Shown here in pieces: positions 8,199 through 30,386 of a stretch of 30,386 nt of DNA. The notes under the pieces are model-generated. The model ran no database searches and was not told where the DNA came from. It worked only from the letters and a program-made list of their open reading frames with translations. The translations under genes were made by a program, and so were the position numbers. The stretch lies in the NCBI GenBank assembly GCA_020833025.1, contig JAJHRB010000012.1:1-30386 (forward strand), in the 5' to 3' direction. Positions within the stretch are counted from its first letter, which is position 1. Every line of letters begins with the position of its first letter. This stretch comes from Thermoproteaceae archaeon (GTDB taxonomy: Archaea > Thermoproteota > Thermoprotei > Thermoproteales > Thermoproteaceae).

Positions 8199-8684
8199 CT
8201 ACTGCAGTGCGGATAGGTACTTCTCCACCGCTGCCACGAGCCTCTCTACGTCTCTCCTAGCCTCCTCCTCCGTCCTGTACCTGCTGAAAATGCCCTCCCG
8301 GTCGGGCCCGTTGTACTGGAGCTCGTGCAGGTCGAGCGCGATCAGAGTGTAGTACAGCACCTCCTCTCCGTACCTTCCCGCCAGGAGCTGCGCCACCGAC
8401 CTGACCCGCGTCGTGGGCATTAGCGCTGCAATCCAGTACGCCTCCTTGAGCGCCCTGCCGTCTCTCGTCCTCCTCACTCCGGGAAACGCTCCTTCCAGCA
8501 GGTCGAGAGACTTCGCCGCGAGCCCGGCCAGAACGGCCTTCCACGCCTGCCACGCCTTCCCCGCCGCGTTCCTCACGAGGCCCTCCTCCAGGAAGCGCCT
8601 GGCGAGCTCTGCCTCGCACCTTGCCTCGGCGGAGCGGGTCCTTACATAGCCCTCGAGACTCACCCACGGCTTGACCAGCTCCAC
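8199..8684 (-). CDS. PaREP1-family (HEPN-like) protein
   Basis: KPW-Y-R-EA-EAELA-FLEEGLVRNAAGKAWQAWKA...ALDLHELQYNGPD. GTG 8684 lies 22-28 nt after an AAATATA box. Confidence 0.8.
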   Translation of the reverse strand: MELVKPWVSLEGYVRTRSAEARCEAELARRFLEEGLVRNAAGKAWQAWKAVLAGLAAKSLDLLEGAFPGVRRTRDGRALKEAYWIAALMPTTRVRSVAQLLAGRYGEEVLYYTLIALDLHELQYNGPDREGIFSRYRTEEEARRDVERLVAAVEKYLSALQ

Positions 8685-8898
8685 CGCCGGTCTCAATGCG
8701 GCCCGTATATTTTTCCTTGCGCGCCGGCCCGCCATTAGCCAGGCGCGCGGCTTTGCGATGCTCATAAGGCGTTTTCCTGGCGCGTGGCGGCGTGGCCAGT
8801 CGCGTTAGCGCTCGCCGCGCTGGCAGTAGCGGCGCCCCAGCACGGCGGGAGCGGGCAAGCCGTACGCGCTCGCCGCCTTCTGGAATTTACAATCAGCA

Positions 8899-8932
8899 AA
8901 AGCCTCGCCCTTTAGGGCGGGGAGGAGGGCAG
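8899..8932 (+). mobile_element. Orphan IS200/IS605-type right-end hairpin (non-autonomous remnant)
   Basis: AAAGCCTCGCCC-TTTA-GGGCGGGGAGGAG has an 8-bp stem (8903-8910/8915-8922, one G-U pair). It matches from memory the AAGCCCCGCCCTTTAGGGCGGGGAGGAG right end of archaeal tnpB elements and translates as KPRPLGRGGG. No tnpA or tnpB is adjacent. Confidence 0.55.
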
Positions 8933-9001
8933 GTCCTCTGGAGGGTGCACTGCATATCGTCGCGGCGTGGCGGAACCGTGAGCTGCAAGTAGGCGTGCCG
9001 G

Positions 9002-9334
9002 CTACTTGACCCTGACCCAGTATCTCTCCGCGTCTCTCAGCGCGGCGCTCCTCTGCCTGGCCTCCTCGAACTCCTCCGGAGTGTACGGCAGGACCTCCAC
9101 CCACTTCTCGAGCCCCAGCCTGACCTGCAGCCTGGCCACGAGGTCGAGCCTGTCCAGCCACCTAATCCCCGCGAAGTCCGGCGAGACGACTACGAGGTCC
9201 ACGTCGCTGCTCTTGAGCCAGTCGCCCCTTGCATAGGAGCCGAAGAGGTAAGCCTCCGCGACTCTGAAGCCGGCGTCCTCCAGGGCCGAGAGAAGCCTAC
9301 TTACAATCTCTAAGATTTCCGGGGGTGCCCTCAT
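9002..9334 (-). CDS. Minimal nucleotidyltransferase (MNT) antitoxin
   Basis: YLFGSYARGDWLKSSDVDLVVVS (GS-x10-DxD). Overlaps the upstream HEPN gene. Confidence 0.85.
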   Translation of the reverse strand: MRAPPEILEIVSRLLSALEDAGFRVAEAYLFGSYARGDWLKSSDVDLVVVSPDFAGIRWLDRLDLVARLQVRLGLEKWVEVLPYTPEEFEEARQRSAALRDAERYWVRVK

Positions 9335-9743
9335 AGCCTGCCCTGACCAGGAGCTCCTCGGCAATGCCTACCACAGCACCAGCCGTCTCCAGCGCCCTCT
9401 CGGCGTCTCCCCGCGTCACGGCCTCGAAGGGCTGCCCTGCCGCCGCGTCCGGGTATCTCGACACGGTGTAGAACTTGTTCAGCTCTGCCACGCGCACTTC
9501 CAGCTCCGGGCTGAAGTCCACGCCCGCCCTTTTCAACTCCCTGTAGAGCTCGGTGAGGACGTGCGTTCTGGGCGGCTCTGCCCTCAGCACGACGAAGAAC
9601 AGGCTCTTCAGCGCCTTCTCCGCCGCCTGGTGGCTGTAAAACGCGGCGGCGTTAAAGCGCCCGGCCGCGTGCAGTATCCGCGCGGTGCAGAGGTCGTGCC
9701 ACGCCTCGCGGATCCAGTACACGGCCTCGCGCCTGAGGGCCAC
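9297..9743 (-). CDS. HEPN-domain protein, MNT partner
   Basis: W-EA-DL-A...AAFYSHQAAEKALKS...PRTHVL...SRYPD. TATA-like TTAATATA about 25 nt upstream of GTG 9743. Confidence 0.85.
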   Translation of the reverse strand: MALRREAVYWIREAWHDLCTARILHAAGRFNAAAFYSHQAAEKALKSLFFVVLRAEPPRTHVLTELYRELKRAGVDFSPELEVRVAELNKFYTVSRYPDAAAGQPFEAVTRGDAERALETAGAVVGIAEELLVRAGYEGTPGNLRDCK

Positions 9744-9848
9744 GTGGCATCCTGAGGGATCGCTATATTAATGCGGCGCCCGCGGTGCGTGCCGCGGGCG
9801 AGCCAGATGGGGTCGCCGGCCCGGCCTTTGCGAGAAATCCAACTGTGG

Positions 9849-9970
9849 CATGTGGTCTTGGGCGCAGGCGACGCCAGGAGTAAAATAGAGGCGTTCAGAG
9901 CCGCGGGAGTGCCTGTGGCCGAGACGCCGTCTGAAGTGCCGCGCCTCCTAGCAAAAGCTCTCAGAAGGGA
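9849..9970 (+). pseudogene. sucD: 3' remnant of succinyl-CoA synthetase alpha subunit
   Basis: GAGDARSKIEAFRAAGVPVAETPSEVPRLLAKALR resembles the SucD C-terminus. The rest of the gene is absent. Confidence 0.5.
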
Positions 9971-10023
9971 GCAATCTCTCGGGAGGCAGGGCCCGGTTAG
10001 ACTGCGGGACGCAGGGCGCGCTG

Positions 10024-10086
10024 AATTGACATTGTTTATAATCTTCATTAAATTATTATTTCATTTGCAGTTAATGTTTTTATTTT
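10024..10086 (+). promoter_or_regulatory. AT-rich promoter region of mdh
   Basis: Only 10 G/C in 63 nt. Ends in TTTTTATTTT about 20-28 nt before ATG 10105. Confidence 0.5.
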
Positions 10087-10104
10087 GCCGCCTTGCTCCC
10101 CAGC

Positions 10105-11034
10105 ATGATAACAATAGTCGGGAGCGGGAGGGTTGGCACGGCCGCGGCGGCCATAATAGGCCTAATGAGGCTGGACGCGAGGATCGTGCTGATAGACATC
10201 GTGAGGGGGCTGCCCCAGGGAGAGGCCCTGGACTTAAACCACATGAGCTCCATATTGGGGCTCGACGTTGAGTACCTTGGCTCCAACGACTACAGGGACA
10301 TGGCGGGCAGCGATCTCGTCATCGTGACCGCGGGCCTCCCCAGAAAGCCCGGCATGACCAGAGAGGAGCTGCTGGAGTCAAACGCGAAGATAGTCCACGA
10401 GATAGGCAGGGAGATCAGGAGGCACGCGCCCGACTCGGTGGTCATCCTGACCACGAACCCTCTCGACGCGATGACGTACGTCATGTGGAGGGCGACGGGG
10501 CTCCCGAGGGAGAGGGTCATAGGCTTCAGCGGAGTGCTCGACGCCGGCCGCATGGCCTACTACGCCGCGAGGAGGATCGGCATTTCTCCCGCGTCCGTCA
10601 CGGCAGTGGTACTGGGGCAGCACGGCGAGAGCATGCTCCCGGTGCCCGGCAAGAGTTTCGTGCACGGAGTGCCTCTCAGCAGGCTGCTGACGGAGGAGCA
10701 GCTGAGGGAGGTCGTGGAGGAGACCGTGAGGGCCGGCGCCAGGATCACGGAGCTGAGGGGCTTCTCGTCGAACTGGGGCCCCGGCGCGGGTCTCGCGCTG
10801 ATGGCCTACGCCGTCAAGCGGGACGCGAGGAGAGTGCTGATAGCGTCGGTGGTCCTGCAGGGAGAGTACGGGGTGCACGGCGTGCCGGTTGAGGTGCCTC
10901 TAGTGCTCGGCAGGGGCGGCGTGCTGAGAGTACTGGAGCTGGAGCTCACGCCGGAGGAGAGGCAGAAGTTCGCGGAGAGCGTGGAGGCCGTCAGGAGGCT
11001 CATCGCGCAGATACCGCCCGCCTACCTCCAGTGA
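10105..11034 (+). CDS. mdh: Malate dehydrogenase (LDH-like MDH)
   Basis: ITIVGSGRVG, LIDIV, GEALDL, TAGLPRKPGMTR (specificity Arg), TNPLD, GVLDAGR, GQHG. Confidence 0.92.
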   Translation: MITIVGSGRVGTAAAAIIGLMRLDARIVLIDIVRGLPQGEALDLNHMSSILGLDVEYLGSNDYRDMAGSDLVIVTAGLPRKPGMTREELLESNAKIVHEIGREIRRHAPDSVVILTTNPLDAMTYVMWRATGLPRERVIGFSGVLDAGRMAYYAARRIGISPASVTAVVLGQHGESMLPVPGKSFVHGVPLSRLLTEEQLREVVEETVRAGARITELRGFSSNWGPGAGLALMAYAVKRDARRVLIASVVLQGEYGVHGVPVEVPLVLGRGGVLRVLELELTPEERQKFAESVEAVRRLIAQIPPAYLQ

Positions 11035-11247
11035 GCTGCTGCCGCGCCGGCGCACTGCCTATCTGCCGCGGCGCGCTTTTGCCCGCGGGCTGCCCCGGCG
11101 CAGCGCCTTTAGAGCTGCTCCCGCCGGCCCACGGGGAGCGCCCGCTCGCTATCGAGCGCCTGCGGCAGTGCGGCTGGCTCCAGCCCGCGCTCAGGAAAAT
11201 CGCGGAGGCCGGAATGAGGCGACGTGGAGAATAATGCCGGGGGCCTG

Positions 11248-11270
11248 GAATCTTAGGGAAGGATTGAAAT
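11248..11270 (+). repeat. Solitary degenerate copy of the CRISPR repeat
   Basis: GAATCTTA-GGGAAGGATTGAAAT versus array repeat GAATCTCAAGAGAAGGATTGAAAG: 20/24 identical (3 mismatches, 1 gap), including an exact 12-mer. Confidence 0.6.
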
Positions 11271-12074
11271 GGACTCGCACTCGGGCGCGAGGCCGGCCTC
11301 TCTCGCGCGCTCAAGCAGCTCCTGCAGGGCCCGGGCGCCCGCCGCGCCGAGGTCGCGCGTATAGGCATTAACGTACATGTCGACAAAGCGCGCCGTCTCC
11401 TCGAGCGAGAGGCCGCGGGAGAACCTCTGCGCGTGCCTCAGCGCCTCTTCCCTGTGCGCGTCCGCGTATTTAATCGACTCGGCGAGCGCGCGGGAGGCGG
11501 CCTCCGCCAGCTCCCTCCCCAGAGCCCTCCTCACTACGTTAAGGCCGAGTGGCAGCGGAAGGCCGGTCTCGCGCTTCCACCACTCGCCGAGGTCCAGCAG
11601 CGCCCTTAGGCCGCGCCGGCCGTAGGTGATCTGGCCCTCGTGGATGAGAACTCCCGCGTCGACGATGCCAGCCGTCACGGCGTCTGCTATCCTGTCGAAC
11701 GGCACCTCTACCACCCTGACTCCCGGCAGCGCCATTCTAAGCAGCAGCGCGGCGGTGGTGTAGCGGCCCGGCACGGCGACGACTCTAGGAGGCCCGGCGC
11801 CCCGCGCGACGAGCACGGGCCCGTAGCCGTCCCCGACCGACGCGCCGGCCCTGGCCACGAAGTACTCCCTGCACGCGTGCGCGTAGGCGTGCGCGCTGGC
11901 TGCAGAAACGTCCAAGAGGCCCTCTAACACGAGCCTGTTCAGCGTTTCGATGTCGGCGAGGAACTCGACGTGAGGCAGCGGGAGCCTCACGGCCCCCGCC
12001 GTTATGCCGTAAAACACGTAGGCGTCGTCCGCGTCAGGAGAGTGGCCTAGTCTGAGCGCGCCTCCTTGCGCCAC
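11253..12074 (-). CDS. mqnD: 1,4-dihydroxy-6-naphthoate synthase (MqnA/MqnD fold)
   Basis: LRLGHSPDADDAY-ADIETLN-GASVGDGYGP-VAVPG-TTA-FD-I-GVLIHEGQITY-DLGEWW-LPLPLG. Likely GTG start at 12074, 20-27 nt after TATAAAAG. Confidence 0.85.
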   Translation of the reverse strand: MAQGGALRLGHSPDADDAYVFYGITAGAVRLPLPHVEFLADIETLNRLVLEGLLDVSAASAHAYAHACREYFVARAGASVGDGYGPVLVARGAGPPRVVAVPGRYTTAALLLRMALPGVRVVEVPFDRIADAVTAGIVDAGVLIHEGQITYGRRGLRALLDLGEWWKRETGLPLPLGLNVVRRALGRELAEAASRALAESIKYADAHREEALRHAQRFSRGLSLEETARFVDMYVNAYTRDLGAAGARALQELLERAREAGLAPECESISILP

Positions 12075-12102
12075 GCCGTGGCGCAACGCGCCGCTTTTAT
12101 AC
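12066..12102. promoter_or_regulatory. Bidirectional TATA (12094-12102) plus a perfect 9-3-9 inverted repeat over the mqnD start
   Basis: TTGCGCCAC-GCC-GTGGCGCAA at 12066-12086. CTTTTATAC sits about 20-27 nt from both GTG starts (12074 on -, 12121 on +). Confidence 0.5.
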
Positions 12103-12120
12103 TTCAGCGCCGCGCAATGC

Positions 12121-13182
12121 GTGGACGCGTGGGCTCTCGTCGAGACGATGCTCGGCCAGGCCCCGCTCGTCGCCGTCGCCGTCATCGTACTCTACGCGCT
12201 CATGCAGAGGGCGCGCGGCGAGCTGCTGCGGGAGATAGGCAGGGCCAGGGAGGATCTCTCGCGAGAGGTCGGCGCCGTTAGGGGCGAGCTGCTAAGGACG
12301 AGAGAGGACTTTGCAAGAGAGCTGGCGAGAGCCAGGGAGGAGCTCTTGAGGGAGGTCGGCGGCGTGAGGGAGGGGCTCGCGAAGACGAGAGAGGAGTTCC
12401 TGCAAAAACTCGACGAGGTGCGGGGAGAGCTCGAGAGGAGAATTCAAGCAGCAAGAGAGGAGCTCTCCGGCGAGATTCAGAAGACTAGAGAGGGCTTTAC
12501 GCGAGAGCTAGCAAAGACGAGGGAGGAGTTCACGCGCGAGCTGGCGAGAACAGGGGAGGAGTTCGCCCGCGAAATCCAGAGAGTGAGCGACGGAGTGTCG
12601 AGGGCGCGGGAGGACTTCGCGAGAGAGCTGGCGAGAGTGAGAGAGGATTTCGCGAGAGAGATAGGCAGTGCGAGAGAGGGACTCGCCAGGGAGATCGGCG
12701 GGGTGCGGGCGGAGCTCCTAAAGGCCAGGGAGGATCTCGCACGCGAGATTGCCGGGCTGCGGGAGGGGCTCGCGCAGCTAGGCGGGCGCGTGGAGCGCGT
12801 CGAGCAGTCGCTCCGCGCCTTCGGCTCTGCGCTGCTTGACGTGCTGTCGGCCAGAGGCGCGCTGACGGAGGCAGAGGCGAGAATACTCCTCGGCCACCTC
12901 AGGCACGCCCCGCCGGCCCGCTCGAGGCACTACACGGAGGAGGTGCAGAGGAGGCTCCTCGAGATCCTGAGGGCCGTGGAGGAGGGCAGGTACACGGCGA
13001 GTGACGTGAGGGAGCTCGAGTGCATAGCGGAGCTGATGGACAGGGAGTGGCAGGAGACGCGGCGCGGGGACCTGCTGGAGTACAGCTACATGCTCAGAAT
13101 GTTCGTCGCGATCCTCAGGGGCAGGCTGCGCGCCAGGAGGGAGTGGCCGCGAGAGTGGGACCTCGAGCCTCCTCCGTGCTAG
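12121..13182 (+). CDS. Membrane-anchored coiled-coil repeat protein (paREP-like) with a helical C-terminal domain
   Basis: N-terminal TM segment (APLVAVAVIVLYALM), then about 20 units of 11 or 7 residues of RE(E/D)(F/L)xRE(I/L/V)xxx type. Confidence 0.75.
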   Translation: MDAWALVETMLGQAPLVAVAVIVLYALMQRARGELLREIGRAREDLSREVGAVRGELLRTREDFARELARAREELLREVGGVREGLAKTREEFLQKLDEVRGELERRIQAAREELSGEIQKTREGFTRELAKTREEFTRELARTGEEFAREIQRVSDGVSRAREDFARELARVREDFAREIGSAREGLAREIGGVRAELLKAREDLAREIAGLREGLAQLGGRVERVEQSLRAFGSALLDVLSARGALTEAEARILLGHLRHAPPARSRHYTEEVQRRLLEILRAVEEGRYTASDVRELECIAELMDREWQETRRGDLLEYSYMLRMFVAILRGRLRARREWPREWDLEPPPC

Positions 13183-14177
13183 GCCTCGGGGCACACCCTG
13201 CCCACTATTACGTGGCTGTACAGCCCCCCCTGGTACACCACCCTCCTCAGCAGTACCTCCCCGCCGACTGCCCGTACGAACGTCCTGTGCCTCGGCGTTA
13301 TCACGACGTAAGTCGCGCAGCCTCTCGCCAGCCTCCTCATCGCCGCGCCGAGCAGCCTGTAGAGCCTGCCTATCCTGGCCGGCATTCTGAACCCGTACGG
13401 CGGGTTGAACACGTACTTGTCGCAGACGGGCCTCATGATTCTGTGAAGCTTCGTGGAGTCGTACCACAGAACGTCCACCTGCGGGCGCCCCGCCGTGTTC
13501 TCGAGCGCGCCCCTGACGTGCTTCAGCTCGACGTCGACGCATATGTACCGGGACGCCGGGGCGAGCTCCGCCGCCTCCGCGGCTATGGTGCCCCCACCGC
13601 AGGTGAGGTCGCACACAGTCTCGCCGGGCGCCGGCCTCGCGAGCCTGACCATCGCGTTCGCAATTATGGGGTTGAGGCTTGCGTGATGCTCGTAGCGCCT
13701 CCACGGCCTGTCCTTCAGGCTCCTCTTGGCCACGGTCACCCACGCGATCACATAACTCCCCAGCACGTCGACGTTCAGCTCCACGTCGGGGTCCACTAGG
13801 CTTATCACGAAGCCCCTCTCCTTGAGCAGCCTGCCGACCTCGCGCTCCACGTCGCGCGAGGTGAACGGGTGTCTCCCGACCCTCTCGCACCTGACTCCCG
13901 TCGTGGTGTTCCGCGTCAGGTACCTTAGGGCCGCGGGCAGGCACTCGCCGGCGAGCCTCACCACGTCCTCCAGGGAGTCCGCGCGGCCGTCGCAGAGGAA
14001 TACCCCGAAGCGCTCGACTGTCCTGAGGCCGAAGGCGTCGGCCGGCTCGATGTCGGCGTCGGCGATCACCCGCCCGCTCATGTAAACGGCCCTGGCGCTC
14101 CTCAGTCGCGAGCGCTCTGACAGCTCCTCAATCACGAAGTCCTCGAGCCCCGGCACTGTCGTCATGACGTACCTCAC
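13179..14177 (-). CDS. THUMP-domain tRNA guanine-N2 methyltransferase (Trm14-like)
   Basis: MRYVMTTVPGLED N-terminus, THUMP-like RCERVGRHPFTS, ASLNPIIANAM, DLTCGGGTI (SAM binding), FNPPYG. Confidence 0.8.
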   Translation of the reverse strand: MRYVMTTVPGLEDFVIEELSERSRLRSARAVYMSGRVIADADIEPADAFGLRTVERFGVFLCDGRADSLEDVVRLAGECLPAALRYLTRNTTTGVRCERVGRHPFTSRDVEREVGRLLKERGFVISLVDPDVELNVDVLGSYVIAWVTVAKRSLKDRPWRRYEHHASLNPIIANAMVRLARPAPGETVCDLTCGGGTIAAEAAELAPASRYICVDVELKHVRGALENTAGRPQVDVLWYDSTKLHRIMRPVCDKYVFNPPYGFRMPARIGRLYRLLGAAMRRLARGCATYVVITPRHRTFVRAVGGEVLLRRVVYQGGLYSHVIVGRVCPEA

Positions 14178-14241
14178 GCCAGTTATGACGCGGGAGTTAA
14201 TCTGTATCGCCCCTCACGTAGCGCCAGGCGTCGGGCGCGGC

Positions 14242-15102
14242 CTACCGCCTGCGCGCCAGCAGGAAGAGCGCAGCGGCTCCTGCAAGCGCGGCGACGGCCG
14301 CGAGCGCGGGCGAGAGCGCCGCGCCCCTGCCGCGTGCCTCAAGCGGCTCAAACCGCGGCACGTAATCGCCGGGGACGATAAACACGGCGGAGCCGCATGC
14401 GCCCGCCCCGCGCAGGTGCTCGGCCGCCTCCCTCACCGCATCCTGACTTGGGGCTCTCGCGTAATACGCGACCCCCGCGAAGCGGCCGAAGAGCGTGGGC
14501 CAGCATGCGGCAGCAAAGTCGGGCCTCCCGAGCCGCGGGACCTCCACCTCCCTGCACGCGCTGCTGGCCGCGCTGACTCGCGGCACGTCCACAACCACTA
14601 CGCTAAGGTTGTGCTCCGCCGCTACTCTCTCCAGCTCGGCCAGCGCGGTATCCCTCATTCCGCCCAGGTGCGCCACCACGACGACCCCGCCAGAGCTGTC
14701 TCTCTCCTGCGGGAGCCTCTGCACGGCCCACGAGATGTAGTACACGGTGACGTTGAGCCTCGCGAGCGCCCGCCTCACGGGCTCCTCAGCCCACCTTACC
14801 AGAGACTGCAGCGCGGCGACGTACTTATTGTGCACCTCGAGCGTTCTGTGTGCCTCCTCTGGCGTTCTCGCGCCGACGATCTCCCTGGCCCTCCTGGCGG
14901 GCGTTAAATTCTCGTCCGCAACGACCACGCCGCTTCTCTCCAGCCACCTGCCCAGGTTGACGGGATGGTCGAGCGGCGCCGTGAAGACATAAGCGGGGCC
15001 GCAGGGAGTTTCCACCTCCACCACGTACTTCTGCCCGTCCACGTACGCCACGCCGGCCAGCGCCAGCGCGGATGCTAGGAATAGAAAGAGCGCCAGCCTC
15101 AT
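14242..15102 (-). CDS. Exported protein with signal peptide and C-terminal membrane anchor, function unknown
   Basis: ATG 15102 follows a GGTGGAG RBS and overlaps the protease stop (ATGA). Signal MRLALFLFLASALALAG; C-terminal ALAAVAALAGAAALFLLARRR. Confidence 0.72.
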   Translation of the reverse strand: MRLALFLFLASALALAGVAYVDGQKYVVEVETPCGPAYVFTAPLDHPVNLGRWLERSGVVVADENLTPARRAREIVGARTPEEAHRTLEVHNKYVAALQSLVRWAEEPVRRALARLNVTVYYISWAVQRLPQERDSSGGVVVVAHLGGMRDTALAELERVAAEHNLSVVVVDVPRVSAASSACREVEVPRLGRPDFAAACWPTLFGRFAGVAYYARAPSQDAVREAAEHLRGAGACGSAVFIVPGDYVPRFEPLEARGRGAALSPALAAVAALAGAAALFLLARRR

Positions 15103-15796
15103 CTCCACCCAATTACGCCGAGCTTTGACGCTATTGCGTCGTGACTGTGGAAATAGAAGTTGCCGTCCCAAAGCGTAACGGTCCTGCAGCACTTCCCAGT
15201 GTCGGCGCCGACCAGTATGCCCGCCACGGCGGCCCCGTCATTGTAAAAGCGCCAGACGACGCCACCGCTGTCGCCCTTCGCGGCGATCATAGGCCTCTGG
15301 TCGCAATATGGCGGTCCCTCGGCCACCACCCAGCCAACGCCGTTGTTGAAGCTTTCAAGCACGCCGTATATTGTGAGAGTAGATCTGCCAGTTTTACGCA
15401 TGTACGCGCTTCGTTGCATGGCGTGTAGCTCTGCATCTGTGTAATACTTTAGGATGAAGTACTTAACTCCAGCCGGCAAGTCTATCACATAGCGGCTGAC
15501 CTGCGACTTATCTGCAATGTCTATCACAAATGCATCTGGCGCCGTGGAGGCAGCGTATGAATACCCGAGATATAGTAACTGTCAGAGGAGCCGTCTGGCT
15601 GGTATATCTTCACGCCAGCGCCCACCCTGTACTCTACGCAGTGCCCCGCGCTCACATAGCTGAGCGGCTGCGCGGGACTGGAGCTAGGCGCAACGGGGTA
15701 CCCCAGGCTGCAGCGGTCTATGAGTAATCGGATAACCAATGCAGTGGTTGCCGCTAGTGCTGCCGCAGCTACTTTTAGAGCCCGAAGCCGGAGCAC
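15099..15796 (-). pseudogene. Trypsin-like (S1, alpha-lytic/streptogrisin-type) serine protease split by one frameshift
   Basis: Frame 1 carries a signal-like MLRLRALKVAAAALAATTALVI, CSLGY and SAGHC (His 15641-15643). Frame 2 carries PDAFVI (Asp 15534-15536), KTGRST and GDSGG (Ser 15267-15269). The shift lies between 15527 and 15582. Confidence 0.75.
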
Positions 15797-22393: not shown

Positions 22394-22795
22394 GTGGCCG
22401 ACGTCTCAGCCATCGCCTACGACGCGCTCAAGACGGCAGTCGAGCACGCGCTCGGCAAGATAAGGGAGGGCAAGAGGCTTTCCACCGAGGACGTCTTTCT
22501 GCTCTACCTCGGCACAATCGCGGGCGAGCTGAGGGAGCTGAGGGCAGAGATAACCAGGCTTGACCGGCGCATAGACGAGACGAACAGGAGAATAGACGAC
22601 TTAACGAAGTCGCTGTCGGCGAGGATAGACGAGACGAATAGAAGAATCGACGAGATCGCAAAGAGCCTCTCGGCGAGGATAGACGAGACGAACCGGCGTA
22701 TAGATGAGCTGGCAAAGAGAATAGACGCGGTGCAGGCAGCCCTGCTGGAAATACAGAAGCTGTTAATAGAGCTTGTCAGGAGCAGGCAGCAGTAA
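22394..22795 (+). CDS. paREP15-like coiled-coil protein with 18-aa tandem repeats
   Basis: GKRLSTEDVFLLYL followed by about 2.8 copies of RIDETNRRID(D/E)xxKSLSA. TTTTTATAG box at about 22367-22375. Confidence 0.78.
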   Translation: MADVSAIAYDALKTAVEHALGKIREGKRLSTEDVFLLYLGTIAGELRELRAEITRLDRRIDETNRRIDDLTKSLSARIDETNRRIDEIAKSLSARIDETNRRIDELAKRIDAVQAALLEIQKLLIELVRSRQQ

Positions 22796-25783: not shown

Positions 25784-26216
25784 CGAGATTGTTTCATTGA
25801 GACGTCTTTATACGCGATTCCCCGAGCGTTACACTGCAGAATCCGACCACGGCCGCTCTATCGGGGAGGCGCCCATATGTCGCCGTCCACCGCTACTCCT
25901 CCAGGATTCCGCTCCGCCCGGGCCCGGCGTTTATAAATCGTCGTGCGGAACCCGCTTTACACGCATCTAGGCGGTCTGCTCTGCCGCCGGGCTTTGCTCT
26001 GCAAGGCGGGCGCCCAGTTTAAAAAACGTCGTGCGGGCCTGAGGCGCTGGGCGGCGCCGGCACGTGCTTTCGCGCAGTCGCGGGCAAAGGCAGCGCGGCG
26101 CCCGCGTGAATTTGCCGTGGCGCGCCCGCGCAATTGTCGAGGGCACGCCGCGACAAAGCTCTCGATTGCGGCGGAAATGCTTAAAAAGGGGCAGAGAGGC
26201 TCGCCCAGAGAGCCCG
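25784..26216. promoter_or_regulatory. CRISPR leader and divergent promoter region
   Basis: GAAA...TTAAAAA (26181-26187) about 30 nt before repeat 1. TATAAA on the - strand (about 25808-25813) before mcrB. A 20-nt direct repeat at 25929 and 26017. Confidence 0.7.
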
Positions 26217-29200
26217 GAATCTCAAGAGAAGGATTGAAAGGTCGCGTACTTCAGCGCCCAGAACGTGACGGGGGCGCTCGGAATCTCAAGAGAAGGATTG
26301 AAAGCTCCCAAACCCAGGCCTGGCTAGTCAGGGAGCTGAGGAGGAGGAATCTCAAGAGAAGGATTGAAAGACCCGGCGTAGCCCGGGCCGGGCGGCTCCG
26401 GCACGATGAGCGCGAATCTCAAGAGAAGGATTGAAAGGAAGCCGCCAGCGGGCGTCCAGTAGAGCTCGGCTGACTTCTGAATCTCAAGAGAAGGATTGAA
26501 AGCGTCAACTGTCCCGCTGTCTTGGCCCATCTGTCTCCTGACGTGAATCTCAAGAGAAGGATTGAAAGGCGAGGAGCAGGCCAGGGCGTACTACCTCTGG
26601 GCGCAGGCCGTCGAATCTCAAGAGAAGGATTGAAAGCACGTCAAGTACGCTGCAGTCGTCCACCCCTGGATCTATGGAATCTCAAGAGAAGGATTGAAAG
26701 AAGTGCGAGCCCGGAATGACGCTGTGCCACAAGTGCTACCCGAATCTCAAGAGAAGGATTGAAAGCTCCACGGGGCACCCCGGTTTTGTCCTGTCTGCCA
26801 TGTTTGCGTGAATCTCAAGAGAAGGATTGAAAGTCTCCATGAACGTGGCGAGACGCGCGTGGGAGGAGCTGCTCGGAATCTCAAGAGAAGGATTGAAAGG
26901 ATATGTAAGGACGTCCTGCAGCGCGCCAAGGACGCGGTAGGAATCTCAAGAGAAGGATTGAAAGATAGCCAGGGCGCTGGGCTGGGTCATAGCCGGGTCT
27001 CTGCTGAATCTCAAGAGAAGGATTGAAAGAGGCTGCCGGGTGGCGGGGCAGGCCCCCGGAGATTCCGAGGTCTGAATCTCAAGAGAAGGATTGAAAGGAC
27101 AAAGGTCTCGCACTGCGGGAAAGAGCTCCTAGTCCTGTGAATCTCAAGAGAAGGATTGAAAGTTGCAATCACGGCGGCGCCGTCGGCCCACTGCGGGAGC
27201 GCCGAATCTCAAGAGAAGGATTGAAAGCGAGCAATAGCTGAATGCCATGTGCCATGGGCGAAAAGCTTAAGAATCTCAAGAGAAGGATTGAAAGCTCCAG
27301 CTCCTGCCTGCAGGCAGCCAGCTCCGCCTCGTAGCGGAATCTCAAGAGAAGGATTGAAAGTGCCGCTGTAGTTTGCGATCGGGCGGTCGCTCAAGTGCTC
27401 GGAATCTCAAGAGAAGGATTGAAAGAACAACATAGCAGATGACCGCTGGCATGGCTACGCGAGTCTCTGAATCTCAAGAGAAGGATTGAAAGCGCCTCGC
27501 TGATCCTCAAGACGTGGTGGCCGCTGATTGCCTCGGGAATCTCAAGAGAAGGATTGAAAGTTAGGCAAATCTCTTGCAGCTGTTCAAAGGTGAGAGGGCC
27601 GTGTCGAATCTCAAGAGAAGGATTGAAAGATCAACGCCGTGCCGTGGATGCTGCTCGCGAGGGACCTGCCCGAATCTCAAGAGAAGGATTGAAAGTCCCC
27701 CCGGGGTCCCGTTCTTTTGCCGGGCCGGGCCCCGCGAATCTCAAGAGAAGGATTGAAAGCATAAACGCGGCGGAGCTGTTCCACGCCCTCGGCGAGGGCT
27801 GAATCTCAAGAGAAGGATTGAAAGATGGCCCGGCCAGCGCGGGCGTCCACACTGAACCGGTTCCACCGAATCTCAAGAGAAGGATTGAAAGCGGGACTTC
27901 ACGCGGCACTACGGCAATCACGCGGTAGAGTTCTGAATCTCAAGAGAAGGATTGAAAGCCCGCCGCACTGAGTTCGCCCTCGCGGTGGGGCGCGTCTCTG
28001 GGAATCTCAAGAGAAGGATTGAAAGTGAACACGTCCTCCTCCGCGCCCTCCTGTCCGTCCGGGTTGCCGCCGAATCTCAAGAGAAGGATTGAAAGTCCCT
28101 GCGGTAGCGCCTGAGCGTTAAGTAATCGCGCAGCCTGGGAATCTCAAGAGAAGGATTGAAAGTCGCCAAATCTCAGCACCGCCCACGGCCCCTCCCGCCG
28201 CACGAATCTCAAGAGAAGGATTGAAAGCTGAGAACTCGTAGCGGAACGCCCAGTCGTCGCCGAGCTCCGAATCTCAAGAGAAGGATTGAAAGCGTCTGGC
28301 CGGACTGGCGCTCCTACCTCTGCGGCGGCACCGAGGGAATCTCAAGAGAAGGATTGAAAGTCTCCGGCTTTCTCTTCTCGCCCGCCCACTCGTAATCGAA
28401 GTCCGGAATCTCAAGAGAAGGATTGAAAGGCGAGAACTCCCTCGCGGTGCCGCGCCTTATCAGGTCCTCTGCGAATCTCAAGAGAAGGATTGAAAGTCTT
28501 TGCCAGTCCCTCGAGCACCCCCAGCGCGCCGAATATGGAATCTCAAGAGAAGGATTGAAAGCCCTTTTTCCCGCTTTCTACTCCCTTCCCTCTATTCCCG
28601 CGGAATCTCAAGAGAAGGATTGAAAGTCGTGAAGAAGTCGGCAATGGCCCCGAAGGCCTGAGACACCGAATCTCAAGAGAAGGATTGAAAGCCGCGTGGC
28701 GGTCCCAGCGGGCGCGCCGGAAACCGCGGGAATCTCAAGAGAAGGATTGAAAGTTCACGCGGCCATGGTCGAGGCGCGCGTGACGCGGTGGGGGAATCTC
28801 AAGAGAAGGATTGAAAGCTCCAGCGCTTCGCCCTGTAGCAGCACGCCGTCTTGACTCTCGAATCTCAAGAGAAGGATTGAAAGCAATCATGTCGTCGCGG
28901 TACTCGCGTACCTTGAGCCCGCACTCGAATCTCAAGAGAAGGATTGAAAGGTGACCCCGACGGCGGCGCGGTACTACGTGCGCGGCGCCGGGGAATCTCA
29001 AGAGAAGGATTGAAAGGTACTTCCTGCTTGTCAGGTCGTGGCACTCAAGAATCAGAATCTCAAGAGAAGGATTGAAAGGCCGTCGTCAAGTGCGTCGAGG
29101 GCAGTCTCGACGTCAATCTCGAATCTCAAGAGAAGGATTGAAAGCTCAACGCTGTAATACACGCTACCGGTGTAGCTGAAGCCGTGAATCTCAAGAGAAG

Positions 29201-30386
29201 GATTGAAAGCTGCTGCTTGCAGTCCCGGCGTCGGTGACGCGCGAGACGGAATCTCAAGAGAAGGATTGAAAGGTGGTGCATGTCAGTCCCGCGGAGCACG
29301 AGGTCAGTAATCTCCGAATCTCAAGAGAAGGATTGAAAGCGCGGCGGGTAGCGCATCGGCGAGAGGCTCCTGTAGCCCGTGGAATCTCAAGAGAAGGATT
29401 GAAAGGACGTACTGCGCGAGACCGCCGGACGCCTGCAGCACCGAATCTCAAGAGAAGGATTGAAAGGTCACTGCCCTTTCCCTGCGCCCTCTGCGCTATC
29501 TCGGCATCGAATCTCAAGAGAAGGATTGAAAGACCGTCAGGATGGCTGTCGCGGGATTGCCGTGATAGACGCCGAATCTCAAGAGAAGGATTGAAAGTGG
29601 CGTACTTCGGATCCACTTGCGCGGCGCGTCGGAGGTGGGAATCTCAAGAGAAGGATTGAAAGGTGGTGCCAGACGGCGCGCTGAGGAATTTCGTCGCGTG
29701 GGCCGGAATCTCAAGAGAAGGATTGAAAGTGCGTCGCGGCGGCGTGACGCTCATTGACAGCGTGTCGTGGAATCTCAAGAGAAGGATTGAAAGGACGCGG
29801 CCGCAGGGCTCGACGCTATCACGCTCGTGATCGCGAATCTCAAGAGAAGGATTGAAAGATTATGCTTGCCAGCAAGCCAGTGCGGGTAATCGCGCTTGAG
29901 CGAATCTCAAGAGAAGGATTGAAAGCTGCATTGACTTCCCCGATGCCAGCCAGAGCTTCATTGATAAGTGCGGAATCTCAAGAGAAGGATTGAAAGTCCT
30001 TGAACAGGTGGATCCAGCCCGTCCTCAGCAGCGGAATCTCAAGAGAAGGATTGAAAGAGACCTAAGCACGGTCGACCAAGACATCGCCGACGCGGAACGC
30101 GAATCTCAAGAGAAGGATTGAAAGTGGCTGCAGCCCTGCTAACGAGGCCCGCAATGCCCTTGGCCGGAATCTCAAGAGAAGGATTGAAAGTCAAGCACGA
30201 GTGGGGCAGGAGGGTGCCGCTCAGCGCGTTGAATCTCAAGAGAAGGATTGAAAGACGAACTGCCGCACCGCCTGATCATCTACGGTCTCAAGAGGAATCT
30301 CAAGAGAAAGATTGAAAGCTCGGTTGGTACCAACCGGCTGGGAAACCTGGGGCACCACGATCTGAATCTCAAGAGAGGGATTGAAA
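26217..30386 (+). CRISPR. CRISPR array: 64 repeats (last one truncated by the window edge) and 63 spacers of 37-46 nt
   Basis: 24-nt repeat GAATCTCAAGAGAAGGATTGAAAG, counted by hand. Repeats 63 and 64 each carry one substitution, which marks the trailer end. The leader on the left and the ATTGAAAG 3' handle give + orientation. Confidence 0.99.

Follow-up and report, generated by a model that had tools for sequence, protein, structure and literature searches.

The mqnD gene of the 30,386-nt window analysed here (the whole stretch of DNA under study, contig C47 of a hot-spring Pyrobaculum genome) ends within a 23-nt degenerate copy of the repeat that makes up the CRISPR array in the same window. 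The explanation we favour, with a probability of about 0.7, is that this copy would be an inert or disarmed relic of a leader-repeat module, or of a fragment of an array end, which has been co-opted as the C-terminus of MqnD; it is preferred because the copy lacks a recognisable leader and a TATA element and its repeat is degraded. The position of the repeat, at the border of a recent deletion/insertion in a housekeeping region, is resolved to the nucleotide, and the repeat now provides the C-terminus and the stop codon of a gene for respiratory-quinone biosynthesis. Solitary or degenerate CRISPR repeats are known, usually as array ends, as regulators within cas loci or as viral decoys. Unusual in the present case are the nucleotide-level evidence of arrival, the co-option as a gene end and the apparent membership of a recently spreading leader-repeat family. 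The features concerned are collected in Table 1.

Table 1. Positions of the solitary repeat, its neighbours and the CRISPR array within the window.
Feature	Position	Strand	Evidence or remark
mdh, malate/lactate dehydrogenase	10093..11034	+	PF00056, PF02866; 96.6% nt identity to sister up to the stop
Ancestral intergenic remnant downstream of mdh	11037..11188	+	11066-11188 79% identical to L100 6486-6364
59-nt filler	11189..11247	+	no sister or genome counterpart; weak f1 leader likeness; TATA missing
Degenerate solitary CRISPR repeat, 23 nt	11248..11270	+	sequence, chance scan, L100 homology break, identity in L103
Last five mqnD codons (I S I L P) and TAA stop, complement of the repeat	11253..11270	-	sequence, orthologue tails
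Putative 8-nt crRNA 5' handle ATTGAAAT	11263..11270	+	read from sequence; handle length by PMC3396285
mqnD ORF, 1,4-dihydroxy-6-naphthoate synthase family	11253..12185	-	PF02621, domain end at residue 296/310
Array leader, f1 type, GAAATGCTTAAAA BRE/TATA	26077..26216	+	sequence, leader HMM
CRISPR array, 63+ repeats GAATCTCAAGAGAAGGATTGAAAG	26217..30386	+	continues on C118

The repeat copy and the CRISPR-Cas complement

The copy, GAATCTTAGGGAAGGATTGAAAT, differs from the array repeat GAATCTCAAGAGAAGGATTGAAAG by three substitutions and a 1-nt deletion (edit distance 4), and the 20 identical positions in 24 alignment columns given in the preliminary description are borne out by the alignment, the copy itself being 23 and not 24 nt long. 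Its distance from the array had been estimated well, since the array starts 14.9 kb away in the same orientation (15 kb had been given), as had its position downstream of the mdh stop codon at 11032-11034 (213 nt measured, ~210 nt given) and the agreement of seven of the eight 3'-terminal bases with ATTGAAAG, in which the last base of the handle is the altered one. The region originally assigned, 11248-11310, is longer than the repeat, which ends at 11270; the remainder covers the hypothetical guide only, and nothing sets 11271-11310 apart from ordinary mqnD coding sequence. Likewise, the repeat had been said to overlap the whole SISILP-stop end of mqnD, of which ISILP and the stop lie inside it and the first S just outside. 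The copy retains the 5' GAATCT block as well as the 12 nt that surround the expected Cas6 cut site (GAAGGATTGAAA).

The genome (1.56 Mb, 126 contigs, 62.6% GC) was scanned on both strands by an exact edit-distance search with a threshold of ≤4, which returned 36 matches outside arrays. At the same threshold no match was obtained in 12 order-3 Markov genomes of 1.56 Mb each, the comparison with shuffled-type sequence for which the preliminary description had called, and the reversed genome gave one. A chance origin of the 23-mer is very unlikely; it is genuinely CRISPR-derived and resembles the GAATCTC...ATTGAAAG repeat type of Thermoproteaceae beyond chance. The variant nearest to it in the genome, at edit distance 3 (2 if the last base is ignored), is a solitary repeat on C59. 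The copy has none of the regular repeat/spacer alternation of a CRISPR array: there is no second repeat within edit distance 5 at 11000-11500, and TRF detected no array around it.

The Cas types of the genome had also been proposed for inspection, and Cas1, Cas6, Cmr2/Cas10 and Cas7 were found. The terminal repeat of the array, on C118, adjoins cas1; Cmr2/Cas10 is encoded at C46:22370-24235 and Cas6 at C46:28985-29620, the latter found by TIGR01877 and without a match to PF01881 (Cas6_C), while Cas7/DevR corresponds to an ORF on C106 (1099-1968). Judged by these genes, a type III-B and a type I system coexist.

Two spacers of the array have perfect matches elsewhere in the assembly, 27825-27867 to C94:16792-16830 (39/39) and 29273-29315 to both C79:4269-4311 and C16:10477-10519 (43/43); they are either self-targeting or directed at mobile elements that were binned with the genome. 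C103 carries, between two repeats, a 50-nt spacer-like segment that is the same as C106:1280-1329, inside the Cas7/DevR ORF; either an overlap in the assembly or a spacer that targets the genome's own cas7 may account for it.

A lineage-specific deletion/insertion junction

The origin of the present arrangement was examined by comparison with two sister contigs of ~95% nt identity to the window, L100 (JGI metagenome, P0121) and L101 (Logan assembly, P0126). Window positions 8858-11036 are collinear with L100 8816-6640 (96.6% nt identity) and positions 11271-15740 with L100 4804-336 (94.6%), while 11066-11188 is 79% identical to L100 6486-6364. The 82 nt at 11189-11270 stand in place of 1,559 nt of L100 (4805-6363), which hold the last four mqnD codons and two additional genes (294 and 204 aa) that run in the direction of mdh and have no Pfam match. 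Homology to L100 restarts at 11271, one base past the 3' end of the repeat, which places the repeat as CRISPR-derived DNA at a lineage-specific deletion/insertion junction. As the mqnD tail of the sister agrees with those of the outgroups, the state in the window is the derived one. Other Pyrobaculum species (70-81% identity) are unable to place the breakpoint, because mdh and mqnD lie far apart there and share no neighbours with the window. The junction is real, being bridged by independent assemblies: two Logan contigs from an independent study span it from mdh through the spacer and repeat into mqnD, one over 10705-11326 with two differences (X2) and the other over 10700-12493 at ~3.5% divergence (X3), and a JGI strain (L103), ~2% diverged, has the same arrangement and an identical 23-mer. 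The strains seen differ by at most 3.5%, and the invariance of the 23-mer among them for that reason weighs neither way. The relic of an array end at a rearrangement, which the preliminary description had held in reserve, essentially matches what is observed, with the repeat as the right edge of the 82-nt filler.

The following course of events would account for these observations. In the recent ancestor of this lineage, mdh and mqnD were presumably separated by the two co-directional genes and mqnD ended in ...CEPEYV-stop. One event, or a short series, would then have removed the 1,559 nt and left behind the 82-nt filler, the right edge of which coincides exactly with the repeat's 3' terminus. 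On the strand of mqnD, five new C-terminal residues and a TAA stop would have come from the repeat, and the relic would be retained as it now forms the end of mqnD.

The 59 nt of the filler that precede the repeat have a less certain source. BLAST of this segment and of the whole spacer against the genome gave nothing longer than 17 nt, and leader HMMs found nothing upstream of 11248 even at E<100; no TATA element is present. In global alignments the ~60 nt upstream of 11248 have a weak likeness to f1 leaders (empirical p ~0.008) and none of note to f2 leaders (p = 0.3). The segment diverges from any leader more than the 17% change of the repeat or the ~21% noncoding divergence between the lineages would predict, and with a p of only ~0.008 a leader origin is uncertain. 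A derivation from the promoter and start region of the 294-aa sister gene was tried and rejected, as the global alignment looked forced. That the copy stems from a leader-repeat module, and that it is not processed, we infer from the comparison with related units described below. The intact 5' GAATCT block and cut-site context speak against an inert relic, and since the genome tolerates repeat variants of 22 to 24 nt, Cas6 might still cut the copy.

An origin by spacer-protospacer recombination, by inversion or by collapse of an array in place was rejected both here and at the glgP site described below, because the sister, with which both flanks are collinear, lacks an array at the two sites. 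The spacers of the genome have only chance matches of ≤19 nt to the sister-only DNA, and there is hence no sign of a spacer-directed deletion. Cas1-Cas2 nick the repeat-spacer boundary during adaptation. Repair synthesis running off a nicked leader-repeat template, a mode of copying that we offer as speculation, would be in line with a right edge fixed at this boundary and a left edge that varies.

The cassette found only in the sister (L100 4813-6311) encodes a 294-aa protein with an N-terminus that looks membrane-spanning, and diverged paralogues of its genes (27-43% identity) occur at C28:12974-14209 and at the start of C50. On the sister contig, mdh is closely preceded by a HEPN/nucleotidyltransferase pair.

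Leader-repeat units elsewhere in the genome

The copy at mqnD is one of ~25 solitary repeat-like sites, distributed over about as many contigs, at least 16 of which carry a strongly matching BRE/TATA leader. Upstream of most solitary repeats, at a distance of 30-44 nt, the leader contains a BRE/TATA-like element (GAAATGCTTAAAA or GAAAAGCTTAAAA), which corresponds to the promoter-like element that is conserved in all 37 Pyrobaculum arrays (Bernick et al., PMC3396285). The leaders fall into two families, f1 with 24-nt repeats, which includes the leader of the window array itself, and f2 with 22-nt repeats. With HMMs of both families (nhmmer), 21 loci were recovered at E 1e-19 to 1e-37, four of them real arrays, as well as partial, decayed leaders beside degenerate repeats (C9:8426, C23, C58). 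Among f1 solitary units the mean pairwise identity is 97.5% in the repeat, 93.7% in the BRE/TATA element and 80.3% in the rest of the leader, and this excess of conservation suggests that both repeat and promoter are under constraint. Pairwise repeat identity among the other solitary units is 96-97.5%, and that of the mqnD copy 83%. Homology between paralogous units stops at the last base of the repeat (+23/+24). The mqnD copy has this same insertion boundary, as does the unit at glgP on C10, but neither a BRE/TATA leader nor a near-consensus repeat. In five complete relatives the strict leader-plus-repeat pattern had no match, and a simple repeat pattern found mostly arrays among the matches listed.

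The bases immediately following the repeat are, in many units, antisense to the end of a convergently oriented gene. Such a gene has its stop codon inside the repeat for glgP (C10), a TrpB-like gene (C59), an aspartyl protease (C58), a GTPase (C23) and mqnD, and 3-22 nt beyond it for GMP synthase (C54), an ABC ATPase (C64) and a prephenate-dehydrogenase-like gene (C44); the units on C11/C27, C105 and C50 are positioned directly before a start codon on the same strand. C/D box sRNA genes have the same gene-end geometry, and the accumulation at gene ends may thus stem from a tolerance of small-RNA modules at such places and need not imply regulation.

The unit at glgP offers the closest parallel to mqnD. 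It consists of 96 nt (C10 4924-5019, locus L104), a 72-nt leader followed by a 24-nt repeat, and replaces 169 nt of intergenic sister DNA (L106 7464-7632). The flanks are collinear with L106 at ~95% and homology resumes at C10 5020, one base past the repeat. The unit keeps its promoter, and the GlgP tail, which reads ...GYLER-stop in the sister, has become ...GYLERYFQSFF-stop in the window lineage (JGI, NCBI and Logan/ENA copies). A different situation is found at the 3' end of the TrpB-like gene (C59:9289-9310, L105, versus L117 4230-4330), where repeat-derived tails occur in both lineages: in the window lineage a lone 22-nt repeat is preceded by a leader of its own and the tail is ...YEIFNPS-stop, while the sister has an f1 leader with two repeats ~25 nt apart and the tail ...YERALFNPSF-stop. 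The junctions differ and are not cleanly polarised, and the site looks like an older one or a hot spot undergoing turnover. The mqnD and glgP cases together indicate that, in a natural population of Pyrobaculum, leader-repeat DNA is being copied into further places on the chromosome, the copied DNA in those cases always ending at the spacer-proximal boundary of the repeat.

These units permit a wider reading, in which the mqnD copy would be a disarmed member of a lineage-specific family of leader-repeat modules that is still spreading and that forms a cis-antisense regulon of the type III-B system. Taken as a whole we consider it rather unlikely. Each insertion would be a short local replacement, its right edge fixed at the repeat 3' end and its left edge variable, and would come about by a Cas1-linked or repair-templated copying mechanism; the right edge would come to rest on the C-terminal codons of convergently oriented housekeeping genes (among them glgP, TrpB-like, GMP synthase and mqnD). 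From every promoter-bearing module a crRNA would be made whose guide is the antisense of the gene itself, with the anti-tag built in, and at mqnD the promoter may have been lost because a knock-down of menaquinone synthesis did harm. Should the promoter-bearing copies undergo processing, both the control of host mRNAs by CRISPR guides and the way in which CRISPR loci originate would be open to direct test; otherwise the copies remain markers of a part played by CRISPR DNA in genome rearrangement and in the remodelling of gene ends.

The proposed antisense guide

The preliminary description had proposed that RNA from the + strand is processed by Cas6 into an antisense guide that controls menaquinone synthesis. 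This proposal found no positive support, the copy being devoid of a leader and promoter and its repeat degraded against ~97% identity in the functional-looking units, and the mqnD copy is probably not a working guide gene. In its full form, read-through from mdh or a weak internal promoter would give a transcript that Cas6 cuts 8 nt from the repeat end, and the resulting RNA, AUUGAAAU-GGACUCGCACUC..., once loaded into the type III-B Cmr complex, would direct cleavage of the 3' end of the mqnD mRNA, while an anti-tag built into the mRNA silences Cas10.

Several observations are in line with such a guide. The Cas content makes the mechanism enzymatically possible, with the effector side represented by Cmr2/Cas10, Cas7 (DevR) and Cas6 genes and with cas1 also present, and the 5' block and cut-site context of the repeat are intact. 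The repeat is co-directional with mdh, downstream of which only a T4 tract is found in the window lineage in place of the T6 of the sister, and without a strong oligo-T terminator + strand RNA may reach the repeat. On the mqnD strand, the stretch that pairs with 11271 onward is directly followed by ATTTCAAT, which by construction is the anti-tag. Other promoter-bearing solitary units aim their first 40 nt antisense into genes verified by Pfam, and this renders the mechanism plausible for the family. The logic of tag and anti-tag is well established for type III systems. At mqnD, however, there is no leader, BRE or TATA, and the model would need read-through from mdh, which is conceivable. The four changes of the repeat also contrast with the 97.5% mutual identity of the promoter-bearing units, the predicted handle differs at its last base, and the changes are those that create the mqnD stop, in keeping with a sequence that may now evolve as coding DNA. 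Among the sequencing runs listed for the locus there is no RNA run. An active guide at this site is accordingly rated improbable.

The new C-terminus of MqnD

The mqnD frame closes with ...C E S I S I L P and a TAA at 11255-11253. Its closest named matches are Pyrobaculum MAGs and P. oguniense (67-75% identity), and Pyrobaculum MqnD orthologues end in ...C[TIKQR]P[QEDV][YI][VI](DL)-stop. The decisive comparison is the protein cluster at 90% identity, in which six members with 97-100% identity end CESISILP and the sister proteins P0121 and P0126, with 93-94% identity, end CEPEYV; the member at 91% (L102) likewise has the ancestral tail once a frameshift is read through. Conservation of the SISILP codons in other species had been named beforehand as the finding that would make the repeat match coincidental. 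They are not conserved: orthologues and close lineages terminate PEYV, PQYV or PVIV (e.g. CEPEYV-stop, CTPQYV-stop), SISILP is confined to the window lineage, and the match is consequently not a coincidence of coding sequence. As for the other end of the gene, the 310-aa ORF is probably over-extended at its 5' side, because database copies measure 268-277 aa and start 33-42 residues further in, with homology beginning at residue 44; the true start is probably near 12074.

An unmutated consensus repeat in the mqnD frame would contain no stop, and the frame would continue into the complement of the leader. The changes that make the mqnD copy degenerate are the very ones that create its TAA, which suggests that the 23-mer now evolves as coding DNA, and we infer that the stop-creating changes were selected. 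This leads to a further alternative, that the repeat is a co-opted 3'-end element kept mainly for the mqnD stop and for the termination of transcription through its T-containing complement. [quoted passage not shown] 2012, PMC3396285). However, the complement of the mqnD copy holds a T3 run only, weak as an archaeal terminator, and as an account of its own the alternative is rated improbable; it is compatible with, and not opposed to, the relic explanation.

A chance resemblance of the C-terminal codons to the repeat, for which the single match at edit distance 4 in the reversed genome and the possibility that AT-rich gene 3' ends favour such words could be cited, can be regarded as effectively refuted by the mqnD tail and sister-contig comparisons, given the empty Markov genomes, the absence of the tail from orthologues, the homology break exactly at the repeat 3' end and the same geometry at glgP.

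Relation to known systems

The mqnD copy belongs to the same repeat family as the degenerate and orphan repeats of Pyrobaculum (PMC3396285), with the 8-nt handle borne by Pyrobaculum crRNAs (Bernick et al. 2012, PMC3396285), and like the degenerate arrays described there it has decayed by point changes and a 1-nt indel, with no spacers left. Unlike these arrays, it is not situated at an existing or ancestral array end, as the sister has two ordinary genes at this place; it came with the 82-nt filler at a deletion junction and is now coding. With CreA (of CreTA), crlRNA and scaRNA (bioRxiv 10.1101/2023.03.03.530964; PMC9458426) it shares a repeat outside an array and a potential handle-plus-guide RNA against a cellular transcript. 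Those RNAs have a promoter of their own, reside in or beside cas loci and pair partially in trans with a promoter or toxin target, whereas the mqnD copy is promoter-less, has housekeeping genes as neighbours at a distance of 15 kb from the array, and would simply target the opposite strand. As a single repeat mimic without a spacer it also resembles Racrs and the solitary repeat units of viruses (PMC10651486), but these are carried by viruses and mobile elements and act as Cas decoys, while the mqnD copy is chromosomal and no mobile-element genes are seen at its junction.

C/D box sRNA genes of Pyrobaculum provide an analogy for the location at gene ends. They commonly overlap ORF 3' ends convergently and shift position between species (PMC3388794; PMC6009581), and 97 of 526 overlap ORFs, the sRNA donating the stop in 23 (Lui et al. 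2018, PMC6009581). The dynamic positions are a common trait; unlike these genes, the mqnD copy has no C/D boxes and no Rfam match (over 10800-11500 at E≤1, two noise matches only), the module being of the CRISPR leader-repeat kind.

Further features of the surrounding DNA were recorded. In the third lineage, L102, a TnpB-type gene (Cas12f1-like_TNB, 2400-2954) is located directly upstream of mqnD and the neighbourhood is rearranged again. The window itself contains a gene of the PaREP1 family (8199-8765) and two tandem repeats unrelated to the CRISPR repeat, at 12610-12699 and 22571-22719 with periods of 33 and 54 nt, the first of which lies inside a coiled-coil-like ORF (12121-13182).
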